Source of the DNA: a virus | Taxonomy: Duplodnaviria; Caudoviricetes | DNA length: 33,805 bases | Strand: one strand, 5' to 3' | Virus record (IMG/VR): IMGVR_UViG_3300032321_001491 | Span: 1-33,805 of that record | Part shown: piece by piece, positions 634 to 23,569 of the stretch | Numbering within the stretch: the stretch's first letter is position 1 | How the letters are laid out: each line of letters opens with the position of its first letter | Made by a program: the position numbers and the translations under genes | Notes under the pieces: model-generated | Told to the model about the DNA's origin: nothing | The model's input: only the letters and a program-made list of their open reading frames with translations | Database searches by the model: none

Positions 634-658
634 AATGGTAAAGGTAAGCGTTTAGATA

Positions 659-698
659 GCTGGCGTTCATTGTGCTTTAGCACGGGATGAACGCCAGC
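659..698 (+). repeat. Second hairpin (opposite orientation of the GC-TTTA-GC cap)
   Basis: GCTGGCGTTCAT-tGTGC-TTTA-GCACggg-ATGAACGCCAGC; near-identical copy at 1284-1323. Confidence 0.8.
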
Positions 699-733
699 AA
701 AAAAGAAGCCCCGTACCGAAGTACGGGGCTTCT
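699..733 (-). terminator. Intrinsic terminator cassette 1
   Basis: AGAAGCCCCGTAC-TTCG-GTACGGGGCTTCT plus U-tract on minus strand. Confidence 0.9.
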
Positions 734-754
734 ACACGCCTTACGGGGTAAGGG

Positions 755-1060
755 TTACTTGCGCTTGCCTTTGGCAGGCTTGGCGAGTGAGACTACGCAA
801 CGCCCGTCTGTAGTCCATTGAACGGACACAGCGACATTGTTGCGCTCTGCAATGGTTTCAACACGACCACGATACTTAGCCTTGTGGTTTGTGTAATCCT
901 CATCGTTTGGATTACCCTGTGCGTCATCCCAAATGAATGCGTCACCCTCAACCTTTGGGTCAAGGCTAACAATCTCGGCTTGTAGTGTCTCATCGTGGAA
1001 CGCTTCACGCCCACGCTTGGACAGCATGCCTTGCAGGTCATTGAGGTTTATCTTTGCCAT
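755..1060 (-). CDS. Hypothetical protein, 101 aa, basic C-terminal tail; paralog of 1380-1691
   Basis: ORF with GGGAG SD; about 60% identical to the neighbour by manual alignment. Confidence 0.9.
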   Translation of the reverse strand: MAKINLNDLQGMLSKRGREAFHDETLQAEIVSLDPKVEGDAFIWDDAQGNPNDEDYTNHKAKYRGRVETIAERNNVAVSVQWTTDGRCVVSLAKPAKGKRK

Positions 1061-1123
1061 AGGTATTCTCCCATGTTCAACACTCGGTATGAGTGTGTCT
1101 CGGCGGTATTGCCTTTGACATAA

Positions 1124-1257
1124 ATAAACATACCATTATGGTAAAAATGTGTATTAAAGTGAGTTTCGTATTGGTACCCCAACAGCGGGTGTGCAATTGC
1201 ATCGCTGAAGCGCAATCGCACGCCCGCCATGTGTGCGGAATAGAAATTTGTACTAAA
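1124..1257 (-). promoter_or_regulatory. Repeat unit 1: box + hairpin + box/extended -10 promoter
   Basis: Minus strand TTTAATACACATTTTT-N-ATGGTATGTTTAT (1124-1158); hairpin 1185-1227. Confidence 0.85.
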
Positions 1258-1283
1258 AACAGGAGATATGAGTGTGCTACGGA

Positions 1284-1323
1284 GCTGGCGTTCATTGTGC
1301 TTCAGCACGGGAAGAACGCCAGC
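1284..1323 (+). repeat. Second hairpin, copy 2
   Basis: GCTGGCGTTC-attGTGC-TTCA-GCACgggaa-GAACGCCAGC. Confidence 0.8.
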
Positions 1324-1358
1324 AAAAAAAAGACCCCGTGCCGAAGCACGGGGTCTTT
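1324..1358 (-). terminator. Intrinsic terminator cassette 2
   Basis: AAAGACCCCGTGC-TTCG-GCACGGGGTCTTT plus U-tract. Confidence 0.9.
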
Positions 1359-1379
1359 CACTAACCGCAGGAGATGCGG

Positions 1380-1691
1380 TTACTTGCGCTTGCCCTTGCC
1401 CTTTGCAGGCTTGGCGAGCGAGATAACCATCTGACCAGTGGTGAGCCACTGCACGCTGATGGCTACGCCGTTCTTATCGGCTAGTCCCTCAGCACGCCCA
1501 CGCCACATTGCTTTGTGGTTCGTGTAGTCCTCGCTGGTTGGGTCTCCTTGACTGCCCTCGTAGATGGTTGCATCACCATCTATCGCTGGGTCAAGGCTCA
1601 TGATTTCAGCCTCAAGTTCAGGGTTGTCATACGGGGCTCGCCCACGAGATGATAACTGACCTTTGAGGTCGTTCAGGTTTACCTTTGGCAT
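1380..1691 (-). CDS. Hypothetical protein, 103 aa; paralog of 755-1060
   Basis: ORF with AAGGAG SD; shared EDYTNHKA and SLAKPAKGK motifs. Confidence 0.9.
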   Translation of the reverse strand: MPKVNLNDLKGQLSSRGRAPYDNPELEAEIMSLDPAIDGDATIYEGSQGDPTSEDYTNHKAMWRGRAEGLADKNGVAISVQWLTTGQMVISLAKPAKGKGKRK

Positions 1692-1754
1692 TGCTTATCT
1701 CCTTGGTTATACACACCGCAGTGTGTTGCCTCAGCCTAATCGCTTTGGCATGAG

Positions 1755-1882
1755 ATAACCATACCATTATGATAAAAATATGTATTAAAGGTAGTTGCGT
1801 ATTGGTACCCCAATGGCTGGAGTGCAAATCTTTTGCTAAAGCAGATCCGCACACCAGCGGCAGTGAGAGAATGTGTATTAAA
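1755..1882 (-). promoter_or_regulatory. Repeat unit 2
   Basis: Promoter 1755-1789, hairpin 1816-1858, second box 1870-1882. Confidence 0.85.
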
Positions 1883-1922
1883 CTTAACCAACATGGTCCA
1901 GGGGTGGAGCTGGTGTTCAGAC

Positions 1923-1956
1923 AAAAAAAACTCCCCCCGCCCGAAGGCGAGGGGAG
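1923..1956 (-). terminator. Intrinsic terminator cassette 3
   Basis: CTCCCCTCGCC-TTCG-GGCGGGGGGAG plus U8. Confidence 0.9.
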
Positions 1957-1971
1957 CGGGGGAAGGAACAA

Positions 1972-2238
1972 TCACTCTGGTTGGAAGAGTGTGAGGTAAT
2001 CCATTTCCTCAATGGAGCCCTGAACATCTGTGAACAGTTGCTCAATGTCGCTCAACTTGTCCTGCACTTCGCCAATGAACTCTTGGCGCAGGGCAACCTT
2101 CATGTCAATCACGATGCTGAGCATCTGAGCGTTCATTTCGCCTCTGGTGATGAGGTTGTCTTTCAGTTGCATGGCAACTTTGACAACATCTTCGTGGGCA
2201 ATTGTGAGCGCCCTTGGGTGTGGTGGTAGGTGTGTCAT
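1972..2238 (-). CDS. Hypothetical helical, acidic protein, 88 aa (start MTHLPP)
   Basis: AAGGAG SD before ATG at 2238; the longer ORF-track start lies in the promoter. Confidence 0.85.
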   Translation of the reverse strand: MTHLPPHPRALTIAHEDVVKVAMQLKDNLITRGEMNAQMLSIVIDMKVALRQEFIGEVQDKLSDIEQLFTDVQGSIEEMDYLTLFQPE

Positions 2239-2281
2239 TGCTTTCTCCTTGTCAAGGGGATAGGAAGTGTCCTTGACATCT

Positions 2282-2415
2282 ATAAACATACCATGTCATC
2301 AAAAATGTGTATTCAACGGCATTGAGACCCTGTACCCTTTTCGTTGTCGTACAAATTGTTTGGTAAACCCAATCCGCACGCCAACGATTTCAAGAGAGAG
2401 AGAGCGTACACTCAA
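2282..2415 (-). promoter_or_regulatory. Repeat unit 3
   Basis: Promoter 2282-2316, hairpin 2341-2387 with compensatory GG-TTTA-CC cap. Confidence 0.85.
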
Positions 2416-2457
2416 CATATTGGATATACCTTTGCTATGGCGCTGGTGTTTGGGCAC

Positions 2458-2493
2458 AAAAAAAACCCCCCAAGCCCGTAGGCTTGAGGGGTT
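2458..2493 (-). terminator. Intrinsic terminator cassette 4
   Basis: AACCCCTCAAGCC-TACG-GGCTTGGGGGGTT plus U-tract. Confidence 0.9.
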
Positions 2494-2509
2494 CGCTGGA
2501 GAAGCGACC

Positions 2510-2767
2510 TTATTTCTTGGTGATTACTGGCACTACGAGTTTGCCCTCGGCGTACCAAATCACACCAACTTTCTTTTTTCCTGCAAGGCTGAGGATACGA
2601 GCACGAACACGGTTTTTGTTGGCTATCGTGTTCGGTACTGCCCTTTGTGTTGCGACAATATCACAAGTGTCGCTCACTGCCTTGACGCACTTGGCAAGGT
2701 AATTATCATGAAACTTTGGTCGCCCACGCCTCATTACCTTGACCGAGCCTTTAGGTACTCTACGCAT
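2510..2767 (-). CDS. Hypothetical highly basic protein, 85 aa (start MRRVPK)
   Basis: AAGGAG SD; Arg/Lys-rich, contains RRGRPK (AT-hook-like). Confidence 0.85.
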   Translation of the reverse strand: MRRVPKGSVKVMRRGRPKFHDNYLAKCVKAVSDTCDIVATQRAVPNTIANKNRVRARILSLAGKKKVGVIWYAEGKLVVPVITKK

Positions 2768-2811
2768 TTGCTTTCTCCTTGCCAGCGGGGTTAGGATAAT
2801 CGCTGACATGA

Positions 2812-2944
2812 ATAAACATAACATATCATGAAAAATGTGTATTCAATGTAGTTGAGAGTGTGTACCCCTTCGGCTGGTGCACAAAGCTTTTGCTGAAGCA
2901 GCTCCGTACACCATTCTTTTTGTGTTGTGAGAATATGTATTAAA
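2812..2944 (-). promoter_or_regulatory. Repeat unit 4
   Basis: Promoter 2812-2846, hairpin 2875-2913, second box ending 2944. Confidence 0.85.
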
Positions 2945-2978
2945 GAAAGCATGCCAGGATACGCAATAGGGTCGGAGT

Positions 2979-3010
2979 TTCCCCCTCGCACCCGTAGGCA
3001 CGAGGGGGAA
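2979..3010 (-). terminator. Hairpin terminator cassette 5 (no U-tract on minus strand)
   Basis: TTCCCCCTCGTGCC-TACG-GGTGCGAGGGGGAA directly after the stop. Confidence 0.7.
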
Positions 3011-3013
3011 GTT

Positions 3014-3232
3014 TTATGCTGATTTTGGGAAATTGTACTCTGTCCTGATAGTCTCTATCAGCCTGTCAATTTCCGAGTCAAGGAAACGGTGTATCTTATT
3101 CAGCCTTGCCGAAGTCTCGGACATACCTAGATACCTGCACATTACACTTGCCAGCATGATTCTCTTGCGGGTCTTATCTAGTTCCCTAGATATTTGCAGA
3201 ACCGCCGTTTTGCATTGGTAACGCTTGTCCAT
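3014..3232 (-). CDS. Hypothetical protein, 72 aa (start MDKRYQ)
   Basis: TAATG overlap with upstream ORF, GGAGG SD. Confidence 0.8.
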   Translation of the reverse strand: MDKRYQCKTAVLQISRELDKTRKRIMLASVMCRYLGMSETSARLNKIHRFLDSEIDRLIETIRTEYNFPKSA

Positions 3233-3453
3233 TATTTCGCCTCCGCAAACATCTTGTCCCAACACTCTGAATGGTAGCCATTCATGAGTTGCTCACGCTG
3301 GGCTGGGGTAAGAGTAGGGAAACAATTCTGAATGAGTTCGCCCTGCCAACTAGCCGTCTTGCCAAACTCCCATTCATCACGGGTCATTTGGACCTCGCCC
3401 CAATGCCCACATTCGGGGCAAGTCGGGGTTTGAATAGTAACCATTATTTTCAT
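3232..3453 (-). CDS. Hypothetical Zn-binding protein, 73 aa (CPEC...HSEC)
   Basis: GGAG SD, CxxC and HxxC motifs. Confidence 0.85.
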   Translation of the reverse strand: MKIMVTIQTPTCPECGHWGEVQMTRDEWEFGKTASWQGELIQNCFPTLTPAQREQLMNGYHSECWDKMFAEAK

Positions 3454-3493
3454 TGCTATCTCCAATCTGTCCTAGCCCGTTGCTAGGAACAAG

Positions 3494-3626
3494 ATAACCA
3501 TACCATCTGATGGAAAATGTGTATTAAAGAGAGTTGATAGTGTGTACCCCATTGACTGGTGTACAAATCTTTCGCTGAAGCAGCTTCGCACACCACCGTT
3601 CTTGTGTGATGAGAATGTGTATTAAA
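3494..3626 (-). promoter_or_regulatory. Repeat unit 5
   Basis: Promoter 3494-3528, hairpin 3557-3595, second box ending 3626. Confidence 0.85.
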
Positions 3627-3666
3627 GATAAAGGGTATGGTCATGTGAGAACGCTGGTGTTTAGGC

Positions 3667-3703
3667 AAAAAAAAACCCCCCAAGCCTTTCGGCTCAGGGG
3701 GTT
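3667..3703 (-). terminator. Intrinsic terminator cassette 6
   Basis: AACCCCCTGAGCC-GAAA-GGCTTGGGGGGTT plus U-tract. Confidence 0.9.
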
Positions 3704-3728
3704 CGTTTGTTTGGGGGGTGATATGTGC

Positions 3729-3965
3729 TTAGGCTTGAGGTCGGGTGACGGTAATTCCCAATTCCTCAGCGAGGGCTTTGGCTTCTTGGTTCTTCTTGGC
3801 TATTGCTTCCTCGTAACCCTTGAGCATCATTGCCAAGCCCTGAATGCCTTTCGTGTTGCCCTGCTGGGTAGCACGGTTGAGTGCGCCTGCAACAACCATG
3901 AATTGTTGTTCCAGTGTCAGTCTTGCGACTGGGTGGTTTGGACTAACTTCTGTCCGCTTTTTCAT
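3729..3965 (-). CDS. Hypothetical helical protein, 78 aa
   Basis: GGGAG SD; ORF fills the space between promoter and terminator. Confidence 0.85.
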   Translation of the reverse strand: MKKRTEVSPNHPVARLTLEQQFMVVAGALNRATQQGNTKGIQGLAMMLKGYEEAIAKKNQEAKALAEELGITVTRPQA

Positions 3966-4008
3966 TGCTATCTCCCTGTCAAGGTGTTAGGGAGTGTCCT
4001 TGACATAG

Positions 4009-4140
4009 ATAACCATACCATCTGATTAAAAATGTGTATTCAACTTAGTTGACAGTGTGTACCCCACAAGCTGGCGTACAATGCTTTGGCTAAAGCAGCC
4101 TTGCACACCATCGCAAGGCGATAAAGAAATGTATATTAAA
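4009..4140 (-). promoter_or_regulatory. Repeat unit 6
   Basis: Promoter 4009-4043, hairpin 4072-4110, second box ending 4140. Confidence 0.85.
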
Positions 4141-4174
4141 AGAGAGACATGTGTAGGTGCTGAAGGGTCGGGGT

Positions 4175-4202
4175 TCTCCCCCCGCCCGTAGGCGAGGGGA
4201 GA
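4175..4202 (-). terminator. Hairpin terminator cassette 7 (no U-tract)
   Basis: TCTCCCCTCGCC-TACG-GGCGGGGGGAGA after the stop. Confidence 0.7.
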
Positions 4203-4207
4203 TGGTA

Positions 4208-4489
4208 TCACTCGTAGATACGATACCTGTCCTGTTGCTTCTCCAAGACATGAGCCTGACGGTACTTGTCAAACACTTCGCACCAAACTTTTGCGAGTGT
4301 CAATGAGCCTGCAACGAAGCGCTCTACCGAGTGCAACATTTTGCCGTTCTCATCAGTGACATAGCACCAAGCCATGTAGTTTCCAGAACCGTCAAAAGCC
4401 TTGTAGACTTCGTACATATGCCAATATGTCCAAGCGTACTCGGCAGTGCCGTTTCTTACCCACTTCATAGTGACTAAAGGAGTGGTCAT
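4208..4489 (-). CDS. Hypothetical aromatic-rich protein, 93 aa
   Basis: GAAAGGA SD; fills the cassette. Confidence 0.85.
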   Translation of the reverse strand: MTTPLVTMKWVRNGTAEYAWTYWHMYEVYKAFDGSGNYMAWCYVTDENGKMLHSVERFVAGSLTLAKVWCEVFDKYRQAHVLEKQQDRYRIYE

Positions 4490-4531
4490 GAGGTTATCCT
4501 TTCTATCGGGGTTAGGTGTGTTCCGATGTCA

Positions 4532-4665
4532 ATAACCATACCATGTGAGGAAAAATGTGTATTCAATCTCGTTCATGCTCTGATCCTCAACAGTTGGTGT
4601 GCAATTGCTATGCTGAAGCGCTCTTGCCCACCACCCGACCGAGTGTGTGTTGAGAGTGTATTAAA
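4532..4665 (-). promoter_or_regulatory. Repeat unit 7
   Basis: Promoter 4532-4566, hairpin 4595-4633, second box ending 4665. Confidence 0.85.
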
Positions 4666-4705
4666 AACTATTGGCATAGGCATGGAGTCGGGCGGGTGTT
4701 GAGAC

Positions 4706-4751
4706 AAAAAAAAGAACCCCAAGCGCCTCAGGGGGGAGGCACTTGGGGTTC
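4706..4751 (-). terminator. Intrinsic terminator cassette 8
   Basis: GAACCCCAAGTGCCTC...GAGGCGCTTGGGGTTC plus U8. Confidence 0.9.
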
Positions 4752-4765
4752 GGGTTAGGTGCTTG

Positions 4766-4849
4766 TTATAAGCCAACCACGCATTGGAATATCATCCAAG
4801 CGAGGCAAGCGAACACAATGTACGCACCAATTTCAGGCAGGCGCTTCAT
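4766..4849 (-). CDS. Small membrane peptide, 27 aa (MKRLPEIGAYIVFACLAWMIFQCVVGL); not in ORF track
   Basis: ATGA overlap with the upstream stop; single hydrophobic helix; ends just before the terminator. Confidence 0.65.
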   Translation of the reverse strand: MKRLPEIGAYIVFACLAWMIFQCVVGL

Positions 4850-5073
4850 TGAGATACCAGCCTGTATTCCAGCACCTCGTAGAAGTTACCTGACGGGTGA
4901 TACTGGGCATTGACGGTAATCTCAACGATACCACCGTCAAGTTTGAGCCTGAACACTTGGTATGCCCAAGTGTCGTCAACCTCAACGGGGATAGTGTTGG
5001 ATAGGATAAGGTTCAGTGCACGCTTGCCGAGCAAGGCACGCTGAGCCGTTTCGCTTGTGTCTATGGTAGCCAT
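4846..5073 (-). CDS. Hypothetical protein, 75 aa (start MATIDT)
   Basis: GAGGA SD before ATG at 5073. Confidence 0.85.
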   Translation of the reverse strand: MATIDTSETAQRALLGKRALNLILSNTIPVEVDDTWAYQVFRLKLDGGIVEITVNAQYHPSGNFYEVLEYRLVSQ

Positions 5074-5110
5074 AGTTTCCTCTCTGTCTCGGCGGGTTGC
5101 CTTGACTGAT

Positions 5111-5239
5111 ATAACCATACCATACGATAGAAAATGTGTATTCAACCTCGTTGATATGATGAACCCCATTGCCTGGTGTACAATTGCTTTGCTGAAGCGC
5201 CCTTGCCCACCATCGCATGTGTGAAGTGAGTGCATTCAA
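5111..5239 (-). promoter_or_regulatory. Repeat unit 8
   Basis: Promoter 5111-5145, hairpin 5174-5212, second box ending 5239. Confidence 0.85.
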
Positions 5240-5280
5240 AGAGAAGAAACTCCGTGTGCAGATGAGTCGGAGTTCAGGGC

Positions 5281-5324
5281 AAAAAAAAAGCCCCCAAGCC
5301 TCGGAGGGTGAGGCTTGAGGGCTT
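5281..5324 (-). terminator. Intrinsic terminator cassette 9
   Basis: AAGCCCTCAAGCCTC...GAGGCTTGGGGGCTT plus U-tract. Confidence 0.9.
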
Positions 5325-5341
5325 GTCGGGGCATTGAGTTA

Positions 5342-5629
5342 CTAGAACTCTATTGGTGCTTCAATTGCTGGTATCTGCACTGCGTTGCGATGTTCTTGCA
5401 TCGCACGCTGGTCGGCTTCCAAGCCGTACTGAATCATTTGCGCACGATGGTCGCAATCTTGCACCATGCGTGTCAGATGTTCAGCGGTTCGGTTCCAACC
5501 GCTTGCTCTGCAGTATGCGCTTGCGTTTGTGAAACGCAAAGCGGTGTTCTGCAGTTGCTCTACCAAGTTTGCAACCATTCGTGGAATGTTGTCTCGCTCG
5601 GTTTCGCTGGGTGTTTGATAATGTGCCAT
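5342..5629 (-). CDS. Hypothetical helical protein, 95 aa (start MAHYQT)
   Basis: GGAGGT SD before ATG at 5629. Confidence 0.85.
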   Translation of the reverse strand: MAHYQTPSETERDNIPRMVANLVEQLQNTALRFTNASAYCRASGWNRTAEHLTRMVQDCDHRAQMIQYGLEADQRAMQEHRNAVQIPAIEAPIEF

Positions 5630-5687
5630 GATGAACCTCCAGTTCATTTGTTGTTGGCGTTTGTGTTTATCGTTCACCCCGACAAGA

Positions 5688-5790
5688 ACAACCATACCAT
5701 CTGGAAGAAAATGTGTATTCAATCTTGTTCAAGCTCGCATCCCCAATCACTGGTGTACAATTCTTTTGCTGAAGCAGAATCGCACTCCAG
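5688..5790 (-). promoter_or_regulatory. Repeat unit 9 (first in transcription order)
   Basis: Promoter 5688-5722, hairpin 5750-5790. Confidence 0.85.
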
Positions 5791-5921
5791 CGATTGACCC
5801 TAGTCAACACAGGTATTTCGTATGCGGCTAAAAACAAAAGTAACATTCATAAAATATATACTCAAATTTTGGATAGGAAGGTTCAAGGCGGGTATAGGAG
5901 TATAAAAGTTTGGGGGAGAAT

Positions 5922-6011
5922 AAAAAAGACCGCTAGAGATGCACATGCCCCTGGGGGTTAAGCCCAGAGGCATCTGCACCTATAACGGTCCTAAGGTTAG
6001 CTTTCGCTGCC
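5922..6011 (-). ncRNA. Putative ~90-nt structured RNA with segment antisense to 23S rRNA
   Basis: TATACT -10 at 6018-6023, GAAA-tetraloop mini-hairpin, ~26-bp G-U-containing stem, U6 tail; 5980-5997 matches the 23S/I-CeuI site sequence. Confidence 0.6.
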
Positions 6012-6065
6012 TTTATCAGTATACACAGATACTAATTTGCGGGGTAGTAATAATGATTGGGTGTA

Positions 6066-6239
6066 TTACCGAGAGTTACGGTAGAAGCCATGACCTTTGA
6101 AGTTGATTCCTGGCGGGGAGAATAATTGTCTCAGAGGAAGGTCGCAGACTGGACACTTATCCTTAGAGAGCTCCTCAGTGACTTTCCTAGTCTCTTCGTA
6201 GATGTGCTGGTTATTACAGATGTATTCATATGTTGGCAT
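6066..6239 (-). CDS. FmdB-family zinc-ribbon protein, 57 aa
   Basis: MPTYEYxC...H...CPxC...FKGxGFY signature; leaderless after TGaTATACT. Confidence 0.85.
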   Translation of the reverse strand: MPTYEYICNNQHIYEETRKVTEELSKDKCPVCDLPLRQLFSPPGINFKGHGFYRNSR

Positions 6240-6304
6240 GTTTACCAGTATATCATGGCGAACAACAGTTAGTACTTTTCGTGCCACTCGTGCTAACATA
6301 GAGC

Positions 6305-6901
6305 GTGTCTACTGATTACAATATGTGGCTAAGAGCCGCTCATGACCACCTGTGGGTGTTTGACAAGCTGATTGTCGCAAAGAAGGCAGGTCATGTGTGC
6401 GGTCCAAGGGGTATGCCCGTTCCAAAACCCAATTTTTATATGGTGAGACCAATTTCCAACTTTGAGGGAATGGGTCTTGGAGCTCGCAAGGTCTGGTTGG
6501 AAGATTCTACGCTTGAATTACACCCTGGAGAGTTCTGGTGTGAGTTCTTTACTGGGGATCACATTAGCGTTGATTACCGCCTGTACGATCCTGTGTTGAT
6601 TGTTAAAGGTACTCCACACCCAAATGCACCCCACTCTAAATTTATAAAATGGGAGAAGCTAGAAACACCGATCCCACAACCTGCCATGTTGGGCAAGATA
6701 CCACTCTATTACAAGACAATCAACTGTGAGTTTATTGGTGGTAAGTTAATTGAGATACATTTACGAGGCAATCCTGATTTTATCTATGGCAATAGCATTG
6801 CAATACCTGTGTGGGAAGGTGAAAAAATTAATCCACCGCAATCAATGAGATTTGTGGAAGCTAAAGACATCAATAGAATTGGGTTTTATATAGACAATTA
6901 A
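6305..6901 (+). CDS. Conserved phage hypothetical protein (possible ATP-grasp-like fold)
   Basis: 198-aa ORF, GTG start after TGcTAACAT; VRP..N..GMG, EFF.G.H.SVD and NCEFIGGKLIEIHLR motifs. Confidence 0.7.
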   Translation: MSTDYNMWLRAAHDHLWVFDKLIVAKKAGHVCGPRGMPVPKPNFYMVRPISNFEGMGLGARKVWLEDSTLELHPGEFWCEFFTGDHISVDYRLYDPVLIVKGTPHPNAPHSKFIKWEKLETPIPQPAMLGKIPLYYKTINCEFIGGKLIEIHLRGNPDFIYGNSIAIPVWEGEKINPPQSMRFVEAKDINRIGFYIDN

Positions 6902-7499: not shown

Positions 7500-7684
7500 T
7501 CCATCCCCTTGAATTCAGGAAAATATTTTTCAACAGCCCTTTCCCGACTAATCCCAAAATCAGCACACCACTGTTTAAGTAAACCATTGGCGATATCCCG
7601 CCATCTATCCCGTTCCGCCTCCAGCTGCTTGATTTCGTTAAAAGTCTCTTTGTCCATTTTAATTATTCTATTTTTATCCATCAC
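7496..7684 (-). CDS. Hypothetical protein, ~62 aa
   Basis: Coupled to both flanking ORFs; contains the LEAERDRWR coiled motif common in phage proteins. Confidence 0.7.
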   Translation of the reverse strand: MMDKNRIIKMDKETFNEIKQLEAERDRWRDIANGLLKQWCADFGISRERAVEKYFPEFKGME

Positions 7685-8238
7685 AATACTTTAAAGTCTA
7701 CATTAAGTATAAACCTAAATGGATTCTTAACAGGATTAGACGCAGCGTGGATTTGGCTACCATCAAAAATTACAGCACGACCTTTTTTCGGATAAACCTC
7801 ATCAGTGACTCTGTATGACTCATCAAAGAAATATGTGGGACCATCTGATGGGTTAATATAGTAAAGCAAAACTTTATGATTAACTGGATCTCCATTATCA
7901 TACTGAAGATCAATGTGAGGAACTTGATGCTCATAGTTCATCATTGGTGGATAGGGAAAAGTCAAATTCACTTTAGCCCTGATCAACTCAATTTTGCCAA
8001 ATTCAATTTCAAGTTTTTTTGTAAACTTCCTGATAACTGGAAGATGTGGTGATGCTTTATCTGATTCTGATTCGTAAAGATGATGTGACATCTGCAGCGG
8101 AGCATGTGTCCACCTTTGCGCTACCTCGCTTGAGAAGCGATGGCTACGAAACAAACGATAAGGAAAATTTTCAGTACTGACATATTCCTCAAAGTCCTCC
8201 TGTTCTTGTTGTGTAATGAAGTTGTCTATAATTTTCAT
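7681..8238 (-). CDS. 2OG-Fe(II) oxygenase (start MKIIDNF)
   Basis: PHID...LLYYINPSDGPT...HAASNP...R; the ORF-track N-terminal extension is the tRNA. Confidence 0.88.
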   Translation of the reverse strand: MKIIDNFITQQEQEDFEEYVSTENFPYRLFRSHRFSSEVAQRWTHAPLQMSHHLYESESDKASPHLPVIRKFTKKLEIEFGKIELIRAKVNLTFPYPPMMNYEHQVPHIDLQYDNGDPVNHKVLLYYINPSDGPTYFFDESYRVTDEVYPKKGRAVIFDGSQIHAASNPVKNPFRFILNVDFKVL

Positions 8239-8313
8239 GGCTGGCGAGGTAGGGCTTGAACCTACGACCCAGGGATTAACAGTCCCTTGCTCTGCCAACT
8301 GAGCTACTCGCCA
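8238..8313 (-). tRNA. tRNA-Asn (GTT), encoded CCA
   Basis: TGGCGAG acceptor, GCTCAGTTGGCAGAGC D arm, AGGGA-CTGTTAA-TCCCT, GTAGG-TTCAAGC-CCTAC, GCCA end; 76 nt. Confidence 0.96.
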
Positions 8314-9853: not shown

Positions 9854-9925
9854 AGCCCCCTCTCGGACTTGAACCGAGGACCGCTTCATTACAAGTGAAG
9901 TGCTCTACCGCTGAGCTAAAGGGGC
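9854..9925 (-). tRNA. tRNA-Thr (TGT), no encoded CCA (CTA follows)
   Basis: GCCCCTT acceptor, CTTCA-CTTGTAA-TGAAG anticodon arm, CTCGG-TTCAAGT-CCGAG T arm. Confidence 0.95.
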
Positions 9926-21190: not shown

Positions 21191-23569
21191 ATGTCAGATT
21201 TTAATATTTCATTCCCAATTGATATGATTAAGAGGGAACAACGCATTGTTGTAGGCATCGCTACAGCCGACAATGTTGATAAAGCTGGCGATATTGTGGA
21301 CTTTGAAGCATCCAAAGAAGCTTTTGCAAACTGGGGTGGAAACATCCGAGAGATGCATGCTCCTATTGCCGTTGGTAAGGCAATTAATTATGAGCCAGTC
21401 GTGCTTAAAGATAAAGATGGTGTATCTTATAATGCTTTTAAAGTTGAAGCTTATATTTCAAAAGGTGCAGAAGATACTTGGCAAAAAGTTCTTGATGGCA
21501 CACTTCGTTCTTTTTCTATTGGCGGTAAAGTAATTGAAAAATCTGAATCCGCAGATAAATTTTTTCATGGTAAGCCAGTTAATGTTATTAAAAAATATGT
21601 TCTTGGAGAGCTAAGCCTCGTTGATAACCCAGCAAACGCTTTGGCTATTATTGATATTATTAAAATGGATGGAGAAGGGTTGTTTAAGTATGCTCTTGAT
21701 TGCGACTTAGATTGCCAGTTAGCAAAGGCTAAACAACCGCTCAAAGACCCCAAAGGCGGGCTGACTGCTGCAGGTAGAAGGCATTTTAAACAAACTGAAG
21801 GTGCTAATCTTAAGCCAGGCGTTAAAGGTGCAGCCGACACTCCAGAAAAAATGCGCCGCAAAGGTTCATTCCTTACAAGATTTTTTACCAACCCGTCTGG
21901 TCCAATGAAAAAACCAAATGGTGAACCAACACGCCTTGCGCTTTCAGCAGCAGCATGGGGTGAACCTGTTCCTCAGAATGCATCAGATGCTGCAAAGCTT
22001 GCTGCTAAAGGCAGAAGACTTCTTGAGAGATATGCAAATACTAAAGAAAAAGCAGATTTTGAAAATTCATTTGAAGACGCTCTTCTTGAAGAAATTATTG
22101 ATCTTTTGAAAGATGATGATTGTGATTGTGGGTGTGGTGGTCTTGAAAAAGATGCATCAGTTACAACTGACAACGCTGAATCAAAAAATCCATCAAGAAA
22201 TGGAATCATTTCACCAACTGTTCCTCCATTCCCATCTGGTTCGCCAAAATTTAAACCAAAGAAAAAAATAAAAAAAGAAGGAAGTCCATGTTGGGATGGC
22301 TATCACCAAGAAGGTGAAAAGAAAGGTAAGAATGGAAATATGGTTCCAAACTGTGTTCCTGATAATACTAACAAAAAGGAGAAAGACATGAAAGGACAAG
22401 ATCTTATTAACAAAGCAACAGGTCTCGTTCCAACCCTCCAGGAGTTGTTGGCAAACACAGTTGTGTTTTATTTTGCAGCCCACAGAGCACATTGGAATGT
22501 TGAGGGCGTTGATTTTACAGAATACCACGAATTATTTGCAAAAATTTATGAAGATGCTTATGGATCAATTGACCCAATGGCTGAGCTTATTAGAAAAATG
22601 GGAGCATTCCCGCCATCGCTAGACGAATCAGATGACATGTCCAGTATTGAAGATGATTCAGCAACATCAGATTCTAGAGAACTTGCTATTGATCTTTATG
22701 TAAAAAATCATGGTTTGATCACAATGCTCAAAGCCGCATTTAATGTAGCAAACTCGGAAAATGAACAAGGTGTTGCTAATTTTATTGCAGAAAGAATTGA
22801 TATGCATCAAACATGGGATTGGCAATTGACAGCTTCTTTAAGAGCATCTGGTGTAGAAATCCCATCACTCATTGAAGATACTGATGAGACTGACATGGAA
22901 AATGCTGGGAGTATTATGAATTTGATTAATCAAGTTTTTGCTAATTCAACAAAATCATATGATTCAACACAAAATATTGAAGAATTTGATACAATTAGTA
23001 AAATGAACGAAAACGAAGAAGTTATTATTAAGCAAGACTCTGAATTGCAATTAAATAATACTTATGATAAGCTCTCTGACATGAATGAGCAACAAGTCAA
23101 TAAACTTAATCTTTTGAAGAAGTTTGTTGGTTGGTTGTTCCAAGATGTCGCAGAAACAACTTCAACTTCCGTTGAAGTAAGTGGAAACACACAGGAGGAA
23201 GAAATGGACATTAATGTTCTTAAAGATGCTCTGAGTGCTGTTGTTGATGAAAAACTGGCTAGTTTTGCTACTTCAATCAAGGAAGAAGTTGAAGCCTCTG
23301 TTCAGGAAAAAATTGAAGCAGTCGCAAAGGGTTTTGAGGTTCAGAGTTCTGAACTTCAACAAAAGCTGGAAACAGCAGAGTTGGCTCTCGCTGAGCAAAC
23401 AGAAAAAGTTGAGGCATTTGCCGCAGCTGGTGCTGTAAAAAAGAGCGTGGACCCAGAAGATGATGAGGAAGTAGCAGAGGAAGCACTAGCTAAGTCTGCA
23501 CCTACTTCATTCTGGAGAAATACATATCTGCCACAGGAGTTAATCAACTCCCTAGGTTATAGGTCATAA
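21191..23569 (+). CDS. Prohead protease fused to DUF6321-like domain, Dps/ferritin domain and C-terminal scaffold
   Basis: N-terminal IREMH...FSIGG...ELSLVDNPAN; KDPKGGLTAAGR; HWNVEG..F...HELF...YE...D..AE.I (Dps); acidic coiled-coil C-terminus; lies just before the capsid gene. Confidence 0.88.
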   Translation: MSDFNISFPIDMIKREQRIVVGIATADNVDKAGDIVDFEASKEAFANWGGNIREMHAPIAVGKAINYEPVVLKDKDGVSYNAFKVEAYISKGAEDTWQKVLDGTLRSFSIGGKVIEKSESADKFFHGKPVNVIKKYVLGELSLVDNPANALAIIDIIKMDGEGLFKYALDCDLDCQLAKAKQPLKDPKGGLTAAGRRHFKQTEGANLKPGVKGAADTPEKMRRKGSFLTRFFTNPSGPMKKPNGEPTRLALSAAAWGEPVPQNASDAAKLAAKGRRLLERYANTKEKADFENSFEDALLEEIIDLLKDDDCDCGCGGLEKDASVTTDNAESKNPSRNGIISPTVPPFPSGSPKFKPKKKIKKEGSPCWDGYHQEGEKKGKNGNMVPNCVPDNTNKKEKDMKGQDLINKATGLVPTLQELLANTVVFYFAAHRAHWNVEGVDFTEYHELFAKIYEDAYGSIDPMAELIRKMGAFPPSLDESDDMSSIEDDSATSDSRELAIDLYVKNHGLITMLKAAFNVANSENEQGVANFIAERIDMHQTWDWQLTASLRASGVEIPSLIEDTDETDMENAGSIMNLINQVFANSTKSYDSTQNIEEFDTISKMNENEEVIIKQDSELQLNNTYDKLSDMNEQQVNKLNLLKKFVGWLFQDVAETTSTSVEVSGNTQEEEMDINVLKDALSAVVDEKLASFATSIKEEVEASVQEKIEAVAKGFEVQSSELQQKLETAELALAEQTEKVEAFAAAGAVKKSVDPEDDEEVAEEALAKSAPTSFWRNTYLPQELINSLGYRS
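23045..23073 (+). promoter_or_regulatory. Internal promoter inside the protease gene
   Basis: TTGCAA-N17-TAAGCT with TG extension; in-frame ATG 7 nt later (23081). Confidence 0.55.

Follow-up and report, generated by a model that had tools for sequence, protein, structure and literature searches.

A predicted phage RNA and the known RNAs and proteins that act on ribosomal RNA

Trans-acting small RNAs (sRNAs) of bacteria and phages carry a 5′ seed and an intrinsic terminator, and their known targets are mRNAs or other sRNAs, which are recognized by short seeds. Long complementarity to rRNA is found in archaea and eukaryotes, in the box C/D and H/ACA guide RNAs and the pre-rRNA chaperone snoRNAs, which act during ribosome assembly. 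The element described here lies in a 33.8-kb virus record that was analysed whole (the window), and it resembles trans-acting sRNAs in having its own predicted promoter box, a 5′ pairing region, a terminator hairpin, and a U tract, and in tolerating G-U pairs. Unlike them, RNAs of the window type are complementary over 18–35 nt to the part of 23S rRNA that forms its functional core. The phage RNA also differs from the C/D and H/ACA RNAs: it is encoded by a bacterial virus, has no Rfam match, shows no such boxes by eye and no partner gene common to the families examined, and is probably hostile to the ribosome.

The helix 69–71 rDNA target that overlaps the 18-nt complement (18-mer) is, as named in an earlier note on this DNA, presumably the I-CeuI site. 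The I-Vdi141I and I-PpoI targets described at helix 69–71 (PMC2602781) likewise overlap in sequence, but they are DNA sites in rRNA genes; unlike homing-endonuclease targets, the phage element varies by the rules of RNA pairing, and the LAGLIDADG_1 family was not found in its carrier records. Free or damaged 50S subunits leave the same vulnerable stretch open, and it is reported as a site of RNase E (PMC4931109) and of MazF-mt3 and MazF-mt6 (PMC5408214), which are cutting proteins, whereas the phage RNA is predicted to pair. An anti-helix-69 PNA shares the target helix (PMC7038079); as described there, it is synthetic, short, and uncharged, whereas the phage RNA is natural and structured and would extend into helices 70–71.

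No phage or bacterial RNA acting by long rRNA pairing was found in Rfam or in the literature searched (mostly open-access articles, with supplementary motif lists outside the scope). Judged from sequence, the architecture appears to be that of a known sRNA, and the target, the functional core of rRNA, one for which we found no described counterpart in bacteria or phages. If real, the element would represent a new route of host takeover, and it would bear on the open question, as raised in PMC11066056, of how phages in nutrient-poor waters rid their host cells of ribosomes. Because the 23S target is nearly universal and is identical in a gammaproteobacterial-type 23S rRNA (L022), the question can be tested in E. 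coli.

Layout of the element

The element occupies the minus strand of the window from 6023 to 5922, and its features and upstream neighbor are as follows:

6018..6023, minus strand: −10 box TATACT, predicted promoter (from sequence and conservation in family A, the family of the window)
5922..6011, minus strand: predicted small RNA of about 90 nt (from the fold and consensus structure)
5998..6011, minus strand: 5′ segment that forms a weak self-hairpin, with predicted pairing to 23S rRNA as well (from duplex prediction)
5980..5997, minus strand: invariant 18-nt core, exact complement of 23S rRNA 1914–1931 (from sequence)
5926..5992, minus strand: 28-bp stem-loop with its loop at 5962–5956 (from fold prediction)
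5922..5927, minus strand: U6 tract, intrinsic-terminator-like (from sequence)
6066..6239, minus strand: FmdB-like zinc-ribbon gene, upstream neighbor (PF09723, E 1e-7; phrog_1076)

The earlier note had recognized conserved 23S rRNA sequence of the helix 69 region at plus-strand positions 5980–5997, followed by TAGC, and had placed its antisense in a plausible minus-strand transcript. The sequence reads as claimed, and TATACT (6023–6018), the mini-hairpin (6008–5999), and U6 (5927–5922) are all present on the minus strand. The stem arms that it named are also there, in a stem of 28 bp (5992–5926) and not of about 26 bp. Its statement that the anti-rRNA stretch is partly sequestered agrees with the predicted fold, but the toehold is very short, with about 2–4 bases predicted to be unpaired among the first 33 outside the GAAA loop. 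The outer 3′ arm (about 5937–5926) is predicted to fold back and cover 12 of the core's 18 bases; this self-lock is predicted to be strongest in the subfamily of the window. The minus-strand RNA folds at −53.5 kcal/mol (z −7.6; none of 200 shuffles was equally good), and the fold of the plus strand over 5920–6015 is weaker (−40 kcal/mol; z −4.7).

The RNA start is placed 6 nt past the −10 box, at 6011, with 6012–6013 also possible. TATACT at 6023–6018 is not accompanied by a good −35 and was missed by a sigma-70 scan; a CCCGC motif upstream, tried as a promoter class, failed to define one. Transcription would run from the −10 box through to the U tract, and a U-run is retained by most family-A homologs. 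The sRNA-like architecture of the sequence (intergenic position, conserved −10 box, stem, and U tract) points to a conserved, likely transcribed phage small-RNA gene. The sole run recorded as RNA covers only about 5330–5650 of the window; the four runs compared are contigs, three of them probably DNA. In one contig (X1 record 3; window 5837–6307; 50 substitutions), two substitutions and one gap fall within 5922–6023 and none in the core, among the rows listed. Rfam covariance models run over the whole window returned two tRNAs only. The element matches no family at the gathering threshold, so that the known family with another function, envisaged in the earlier note, did not appear.

Complementarity to 23S rRNA

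With 23S positions counted from helix 69 at 1906–1924, as given in PMC2602781, the core target comprises the loop and 3′ strand of helix 69 and the helix 70 region, in the part of the large rRNA that connects the two ribosomal subunits. Read on the plus strand, the 18-mer is identical to real 23S rRNA in L022 and in three of three Acidimicrobiia-type copies, and the rough chance expectation given for it in the earlier note, about 0.003, was reproduced (0.0029 analytically, with no match in 150 Markov-simulated windows). The 18 nt of antisense stand, and the predicted complementarity is longer than proposed and takes in the 5′ end of the RNA. The window RNA is predicted to form 29 bp over 23S 1914–1947 with one bulge, C1942 and 1935–1938 remaining open; in this duplex the 5′ segment (5998..6011) would pair with 1932–1934, 1939–1941, and 1943–1947. 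When a longer target is offered, four 5′ bases are predicted to pair with 1964–1967 instead, so the 5′ register is a model prediction with an existing alternative.

In the L015 subfamily, the first 35 nt are predicted to pair with 23S 1914–1948 in a duplex that includes three G-U pairs and is interrupted by a single C-C mismatch at C1942, and the window form appears, by sequence comparison, to be a shortened version of this full-length form. The L015 5′ arm makes seven of eight pairs with its own hairpin and seven of eight with the target. As it suits both and the mismatches differ in place, both pairings may be under selection. All family-A elements retain the C that faces C1942 (the pattern used for one collection required this C, and the other family-A loci agree).

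Conservation at the family-A locus

The earlier note had suggested asking whether the 18-mer is more conserved than the rest of the stem. Two homolog searches were anchored outside the bases under test. Anchored on the stem motif, the search found 18 viral loci, 11 of them homologs that all keep the 18-mer and seven unrelated. Anchored on the −10 box and 5′ end, it found 67 metagenome loci: the remaining 13 core bases are exact in 18 of these, carry at least six mismatches in 49, and carry one to five mismatches in none. Homologs do retain the rRNA complementarity, and the loss that the earlier note had named as refuting did not occur. At the orthologous locus the core is 100% identical, compared with 59–96% for the stem, 51–85% for the downstream DNA, and 26–40 of 57 residues (down to about 46%) for the zinc-ribbon protein.

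TATACT is present in all 15 distinct family-A elements of a set whose pattern required the box, with variable adjacent bases; it is present as well in the family-A loci found by the 18-mer search and in the 11 stem-anchored homologs, for which the box was not required. In the consensus structure, both partners have changed in 8 of 32 pairs, in what is essentially one event between subfamilies. The FmdB-like gene lies upstream on the same strand, 65–198 nt away, in eight of the nine family-A loci examined, the exception (L009) being an incomplete locus. This gene serves as a marker of the orthologous locus, and transcripts reading through from it could reach the element. A search anchored on the zinc-ribbon protein yielded 44 loci, with the element in the four closest only; the other 40 (at most 52% identity) differ in gene context.

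Recurrence in other phages

The exact 18-mer occurs at 26 IMG/VR loci, one of which is real rRNA (L022). Among the other 25, at least five flank types are represented, with unrelated genes alongside, and the core is carried by unrelated phage lineages. Two conserved control words from 23S rRNA gave two and six loci, each including one real rRNA; the non-rRNA matches thus number one and five, and all five of the latter are inside long open frames. The families other than A sit beside other genes, in one case between convergent genes, and the core common to all families extends only to 1931. The 18-mer of family B directly follows a −10-like box and the terminator comes at once, so that this RNA would be little more than the antisense itself.

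Several further forms were observed. Family F (82 loci; L319, L328, L350, and relatives, with WhiB in G217) has a larger RNA, which combines a sense version of the 5′ strand and loop of helix 69 with the antisense core and its 3′ extension, ahead of a terminator; some of its terminator hairpins hold the same 13-mer as the 5′ hairpin of the window. In L329, L380, and L341 (9–10 loci), a 7-nt complement of 23S about 1963–1969 directly precedes the core, and the RNA would, from its sequence, pair on both sides of helix 71. Complementarity of 22–25 nt and no strong terminator hairpin characterize L001/L002, L008/L016/L024, L398, and L404; L008 and L016 lie on AT-rich contigs beside ORFs that appear by eye to be cold-shock-like and endonuclease-like.

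A BLASTN search of the phage collection for cultured carriers returned rRNA records and terminator matches, with a new element only in Actinomycetia phage DSL-LC01 (OQ999401.1). Here (L474, 2005–2060), an intergenic 15-nt complement of 23S 1921–1935 is followed by a strong hairpin, and the complement reaches 17 nt against a CGT-type helix 69, making it a possible host-matched variant. A Paenibacillus phage genome (L475; MZ092003.1, about 82,000–84,700) contains a stretch of more than 2 kb that resembles 23S rRNA and probably represents host DNA included in the assembly. A search with exact seeds of 9–10 nt gave no convincing second anti-rRNA RNA in the window or in its complete relative G206.

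RNA pairing versus a DNA site

We compared two matched patterns, each degenerate at four positions, one allowing changes that keep pairing through G-U and the other changes that break pairing. The G-U-keeping pattern found 120 loci in 47 of the 64 parts of the collection, 101 of them non-perfect. Two of the 93 non-perfect G-U-compatible loci with full flanks are in long open frames, and the downstream fold is −20 kcal/mol or better in 89 of 94. By contrast, the pairing-breaking pattern found 43 loci in the whole collection, and 15 of its 17 non-perfect loci are in long open frames. As 82 of the 120 wobble loci belong to one family, whose self-hairpin tolerates G-U, the independent clusters number about 8–10 and not 101. 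The non-coding exceptions with a pairing-breaking change in the core are L441, L449, and L142. Extended complementarity lies beside the altered core in L142, L073/L441, and L449, and their hosts may have other helix-69 types.

The pairing region of the RNA is conserved beyond the rest and varies by RNA pairing rules. Strand-asymmetric, G-U-compatible change is not explained by DNA recognition, and this favors RNA-RNA pairing over a DNA site. We consider it highly probable that the element works by pairing with 23S rRNA at all. The earlier note had suggested an RNA that targets, or guides something to, host 23S rRNA; conservation, recurrence in unrelated phages, and wobble-only change argue, at the level of sequence, for targeting, and guiding is taken up below. 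Its other suggestion, an attP or homing-site remnant, finds no support in the wobble pattern or in the five carrier records, which lack PF00589 and PF00961.

Predicted binding energy

Against naked 23S 1900–1971, the window RNA has a predicted net binding energy of −11.4 to −13.3 kcal/mol, according to the start position assumed, compared with a mean of −1.6 and a best of −5.1 kcal/mol for 30 other 23S 72-mers used as a specificity control. The sister subfamilies L005 and L015, and family B, are predicted to bind tighter (L005, −20; L015, −32; family B, −21 kcal/mol), and the subfamily of the window is the weakest predicted binder among the 11 elements tested. Weak net binding together with almost no free toehold counts against a simple free antisense; it would fit a lock that the target opens, or pairing while the RNA is still nascent and lacks its 3′ arm. 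The locus offers three natural forms (locked, partly locked, and open), with predicted pairing able to span 1914–1948.

Proposed mechanism

We propose that the first ~32 bases of the RNA would pair with host 23S 1914–1947 (helices 69–71), the target strand displacing the RNA's own lock. Since a duplex of 18–35 bp must unfold helices 69–71, the reachable target would be nascent 23S, pre-50S, or free 50S; it is there, and not in the 70S ribosome, that the RNA would invade these helices. H69 and H71 are described as flexible in undocked pre-50S, with H71 guiding PTC folding (PMC11260487), and MazF-mt3 and -mt6 are reported to cleave free 50S, not 70S, at the UUCCU of helix/loop 70 (PMC5408214). 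The bound subunit would be unable to join, so that 50S maturation or joining would be blocked and the rRNA routed to decay. The decay step leans by analogy on E. coli, where one RNase E cut after 1942 is reported to start 23S decay in quality control and starvation (PMC4931109). A PNA against helix 69 is cited as inhibiting E. coli growth (Kulik 2017, in PMC7038079). The benefit to the phage might be that no new host ribosomes are made and that ribonucleotides are freed for its ribonucleotide reductase; pelagiphage-infected cells are described as losing rRNA, and the authors propose recycling into phage DNA (PMC11066056).

We see roughly even chances that the RNA blocks 50S maturation or joining and exposes rRNA to decay. 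Because phage proteins must also be made on ribosomes, any inhibition would have to be partial, late, or restricted to new subunits. More tentatively, and with chances we put somewhat below even, many unrelated phages may have independently evolved toehold-locked antisense RNAs against 23S helices 69–71, which would keep 50S out of 70S, present 1935–1942 to host RNases, and turn ribosomes into nucleotides for phage DNA. If true, nature would have its own version of the oligonucleotide antibiotics directed at rRNA, and these RNAs would be candidates for what leaves infected cells without ribosomes.

Alternative explanations

The best-surviving alternative, unlikely in our view, is a guide RNA whose pairing would direct an enzyme of the phage or its host (nuclease, RNase III, methylase, oxygenase, or pseudouridine synthase) to helices 69–71, with the C1942 mismatch or the 1935–1938 loop marking the site. 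A duplex of 28–35 bp suffices for a dsRNA nuclease, the C opposite C1942 is conserved in family A as noted above, and the genome holds an SNase, several 2OG-Fe(II) oxygenases, and a methyltransferase. However, the invariant C is also required by the RNA's own hairpin, the all-family core ends at 1931, C/D or H/ACA boxes were not seen by eye in the alignments, and no neighboring gene is common to the families examined. The SNase gene, which the earlier note had placed near the element, is indeed a neighbor and is present in four of five larger records, but it is not an obligate partner, as it is missing from the complete family-B genome G214 (and from five small fragments).

Less likely again is a role in protection or storage, in which the RNA would cover helix 69/70 against abortive-infection RNases or factors, or park subunits reversibly. 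Family A does cover the MazF-mt3/-mt6 pentamer UUCCU reported in PMC5408214, and the host is probably an actinobacterium, but most families fall short of 1939–1943, and a long duplex over helix 69 should itself block joining, so that a release step would be required. A cis element, that is, a 3′ UTR or terminator of the FmdB-like gene whose anti-23S stretch tethers or regulates that mRNA, would account for the position of the element 65–198 nt downstream of this gene on the same strand. We regard it as improbable: the element has its own conserved −10 box, other families adjoin other genes, and the family-B 18-mer directly follows a −10-like box.

An attP for the 23S gene, or a target or decoy of an rDNA homing endonuclease, is largely refuted and very improbable, even though rDNA 1915–1938 is described as a homing-endonuclease target (PMC2602781). 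The changes are strand-asymmetric and G-U-compatible, and wherever a family shows a promoter and terminator, the element keeps one fixed orientation toward them. A search for integrases of the tyrosine type alone (PF00589) found none in five carrier records, including the three that are at least 90% complete; a search for endonucleases of the LAGLIDADG_1 family alone (PF00961) found none in the five; and Rfam showed no intron families in the window. A neutral relic or chance match, whether captured from rDNA or arising by coincidence within a terminator, has the slightest chance of all: the L015 form resembles an inverted rDNA capture and terminator hairpins are common in this region of the window, but core conservation and the wobble test contradict it, as the core is invariant where flanks drop to 50–60% and recurs in unrelated lineages, and the control words show no enrichment in non-coding DNA.

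Host and genome setting

The host is likely an Acidimicrobiia bacterium, as suggested by WhiB, present in two of five family-A records, and by a ferredoxin encoded beside the element in the relative L012. This ferredoxin is 68–81% identical to its best 80 genome matches (7 of 64 parts scanned), and its best matches are mostly from Ilumatobacteraceae or other Acidimicrobiia. A 23S copy was recovered from three of five Acidimicrobiia-type genomes, and all three copies match the 18-mer exactly. Of 201 genomes in a sample of the phylum, 87 fit the helix-69 pattern; among the 85 tallied (two unpublished genomes were left out), 62 have the matching type, 16 CAT, and 7 CGT, and because the matching type is the commonest (62/85), the host match is weakly discriminating. 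A pattern allowing other helix-69 types found no structured match complementary to the CAT type.

In addition to the enzymes named above, the window encodes a portal, a capsid, and a class II-type ribonucleotide reductase. The complete 108.8-kb relative G206 is collinear with window 1–26,100 in blocks of 68–91% identity and has two WhiB genes. On the minus strand at 650–5800, the window contains about nine cassettes of promoter, small uncharacterized gene, and terminator, each after a shared structured repeat of ~100–135 nt; when 10 cassette ORFs were compared with PHROG, 9 had no match. Between the portal and capsid genes, positions 21191–23569 encode a 792-aa protein that combines prohead protease-like, DUF6321, and ferritin-like domains. 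The tRNA genes are Asn(GTT) at 8241–8313 and Thr(TGT) at 9854–9925; the ORF at 7681–8298, which overlaps the first of these, probably starts later.
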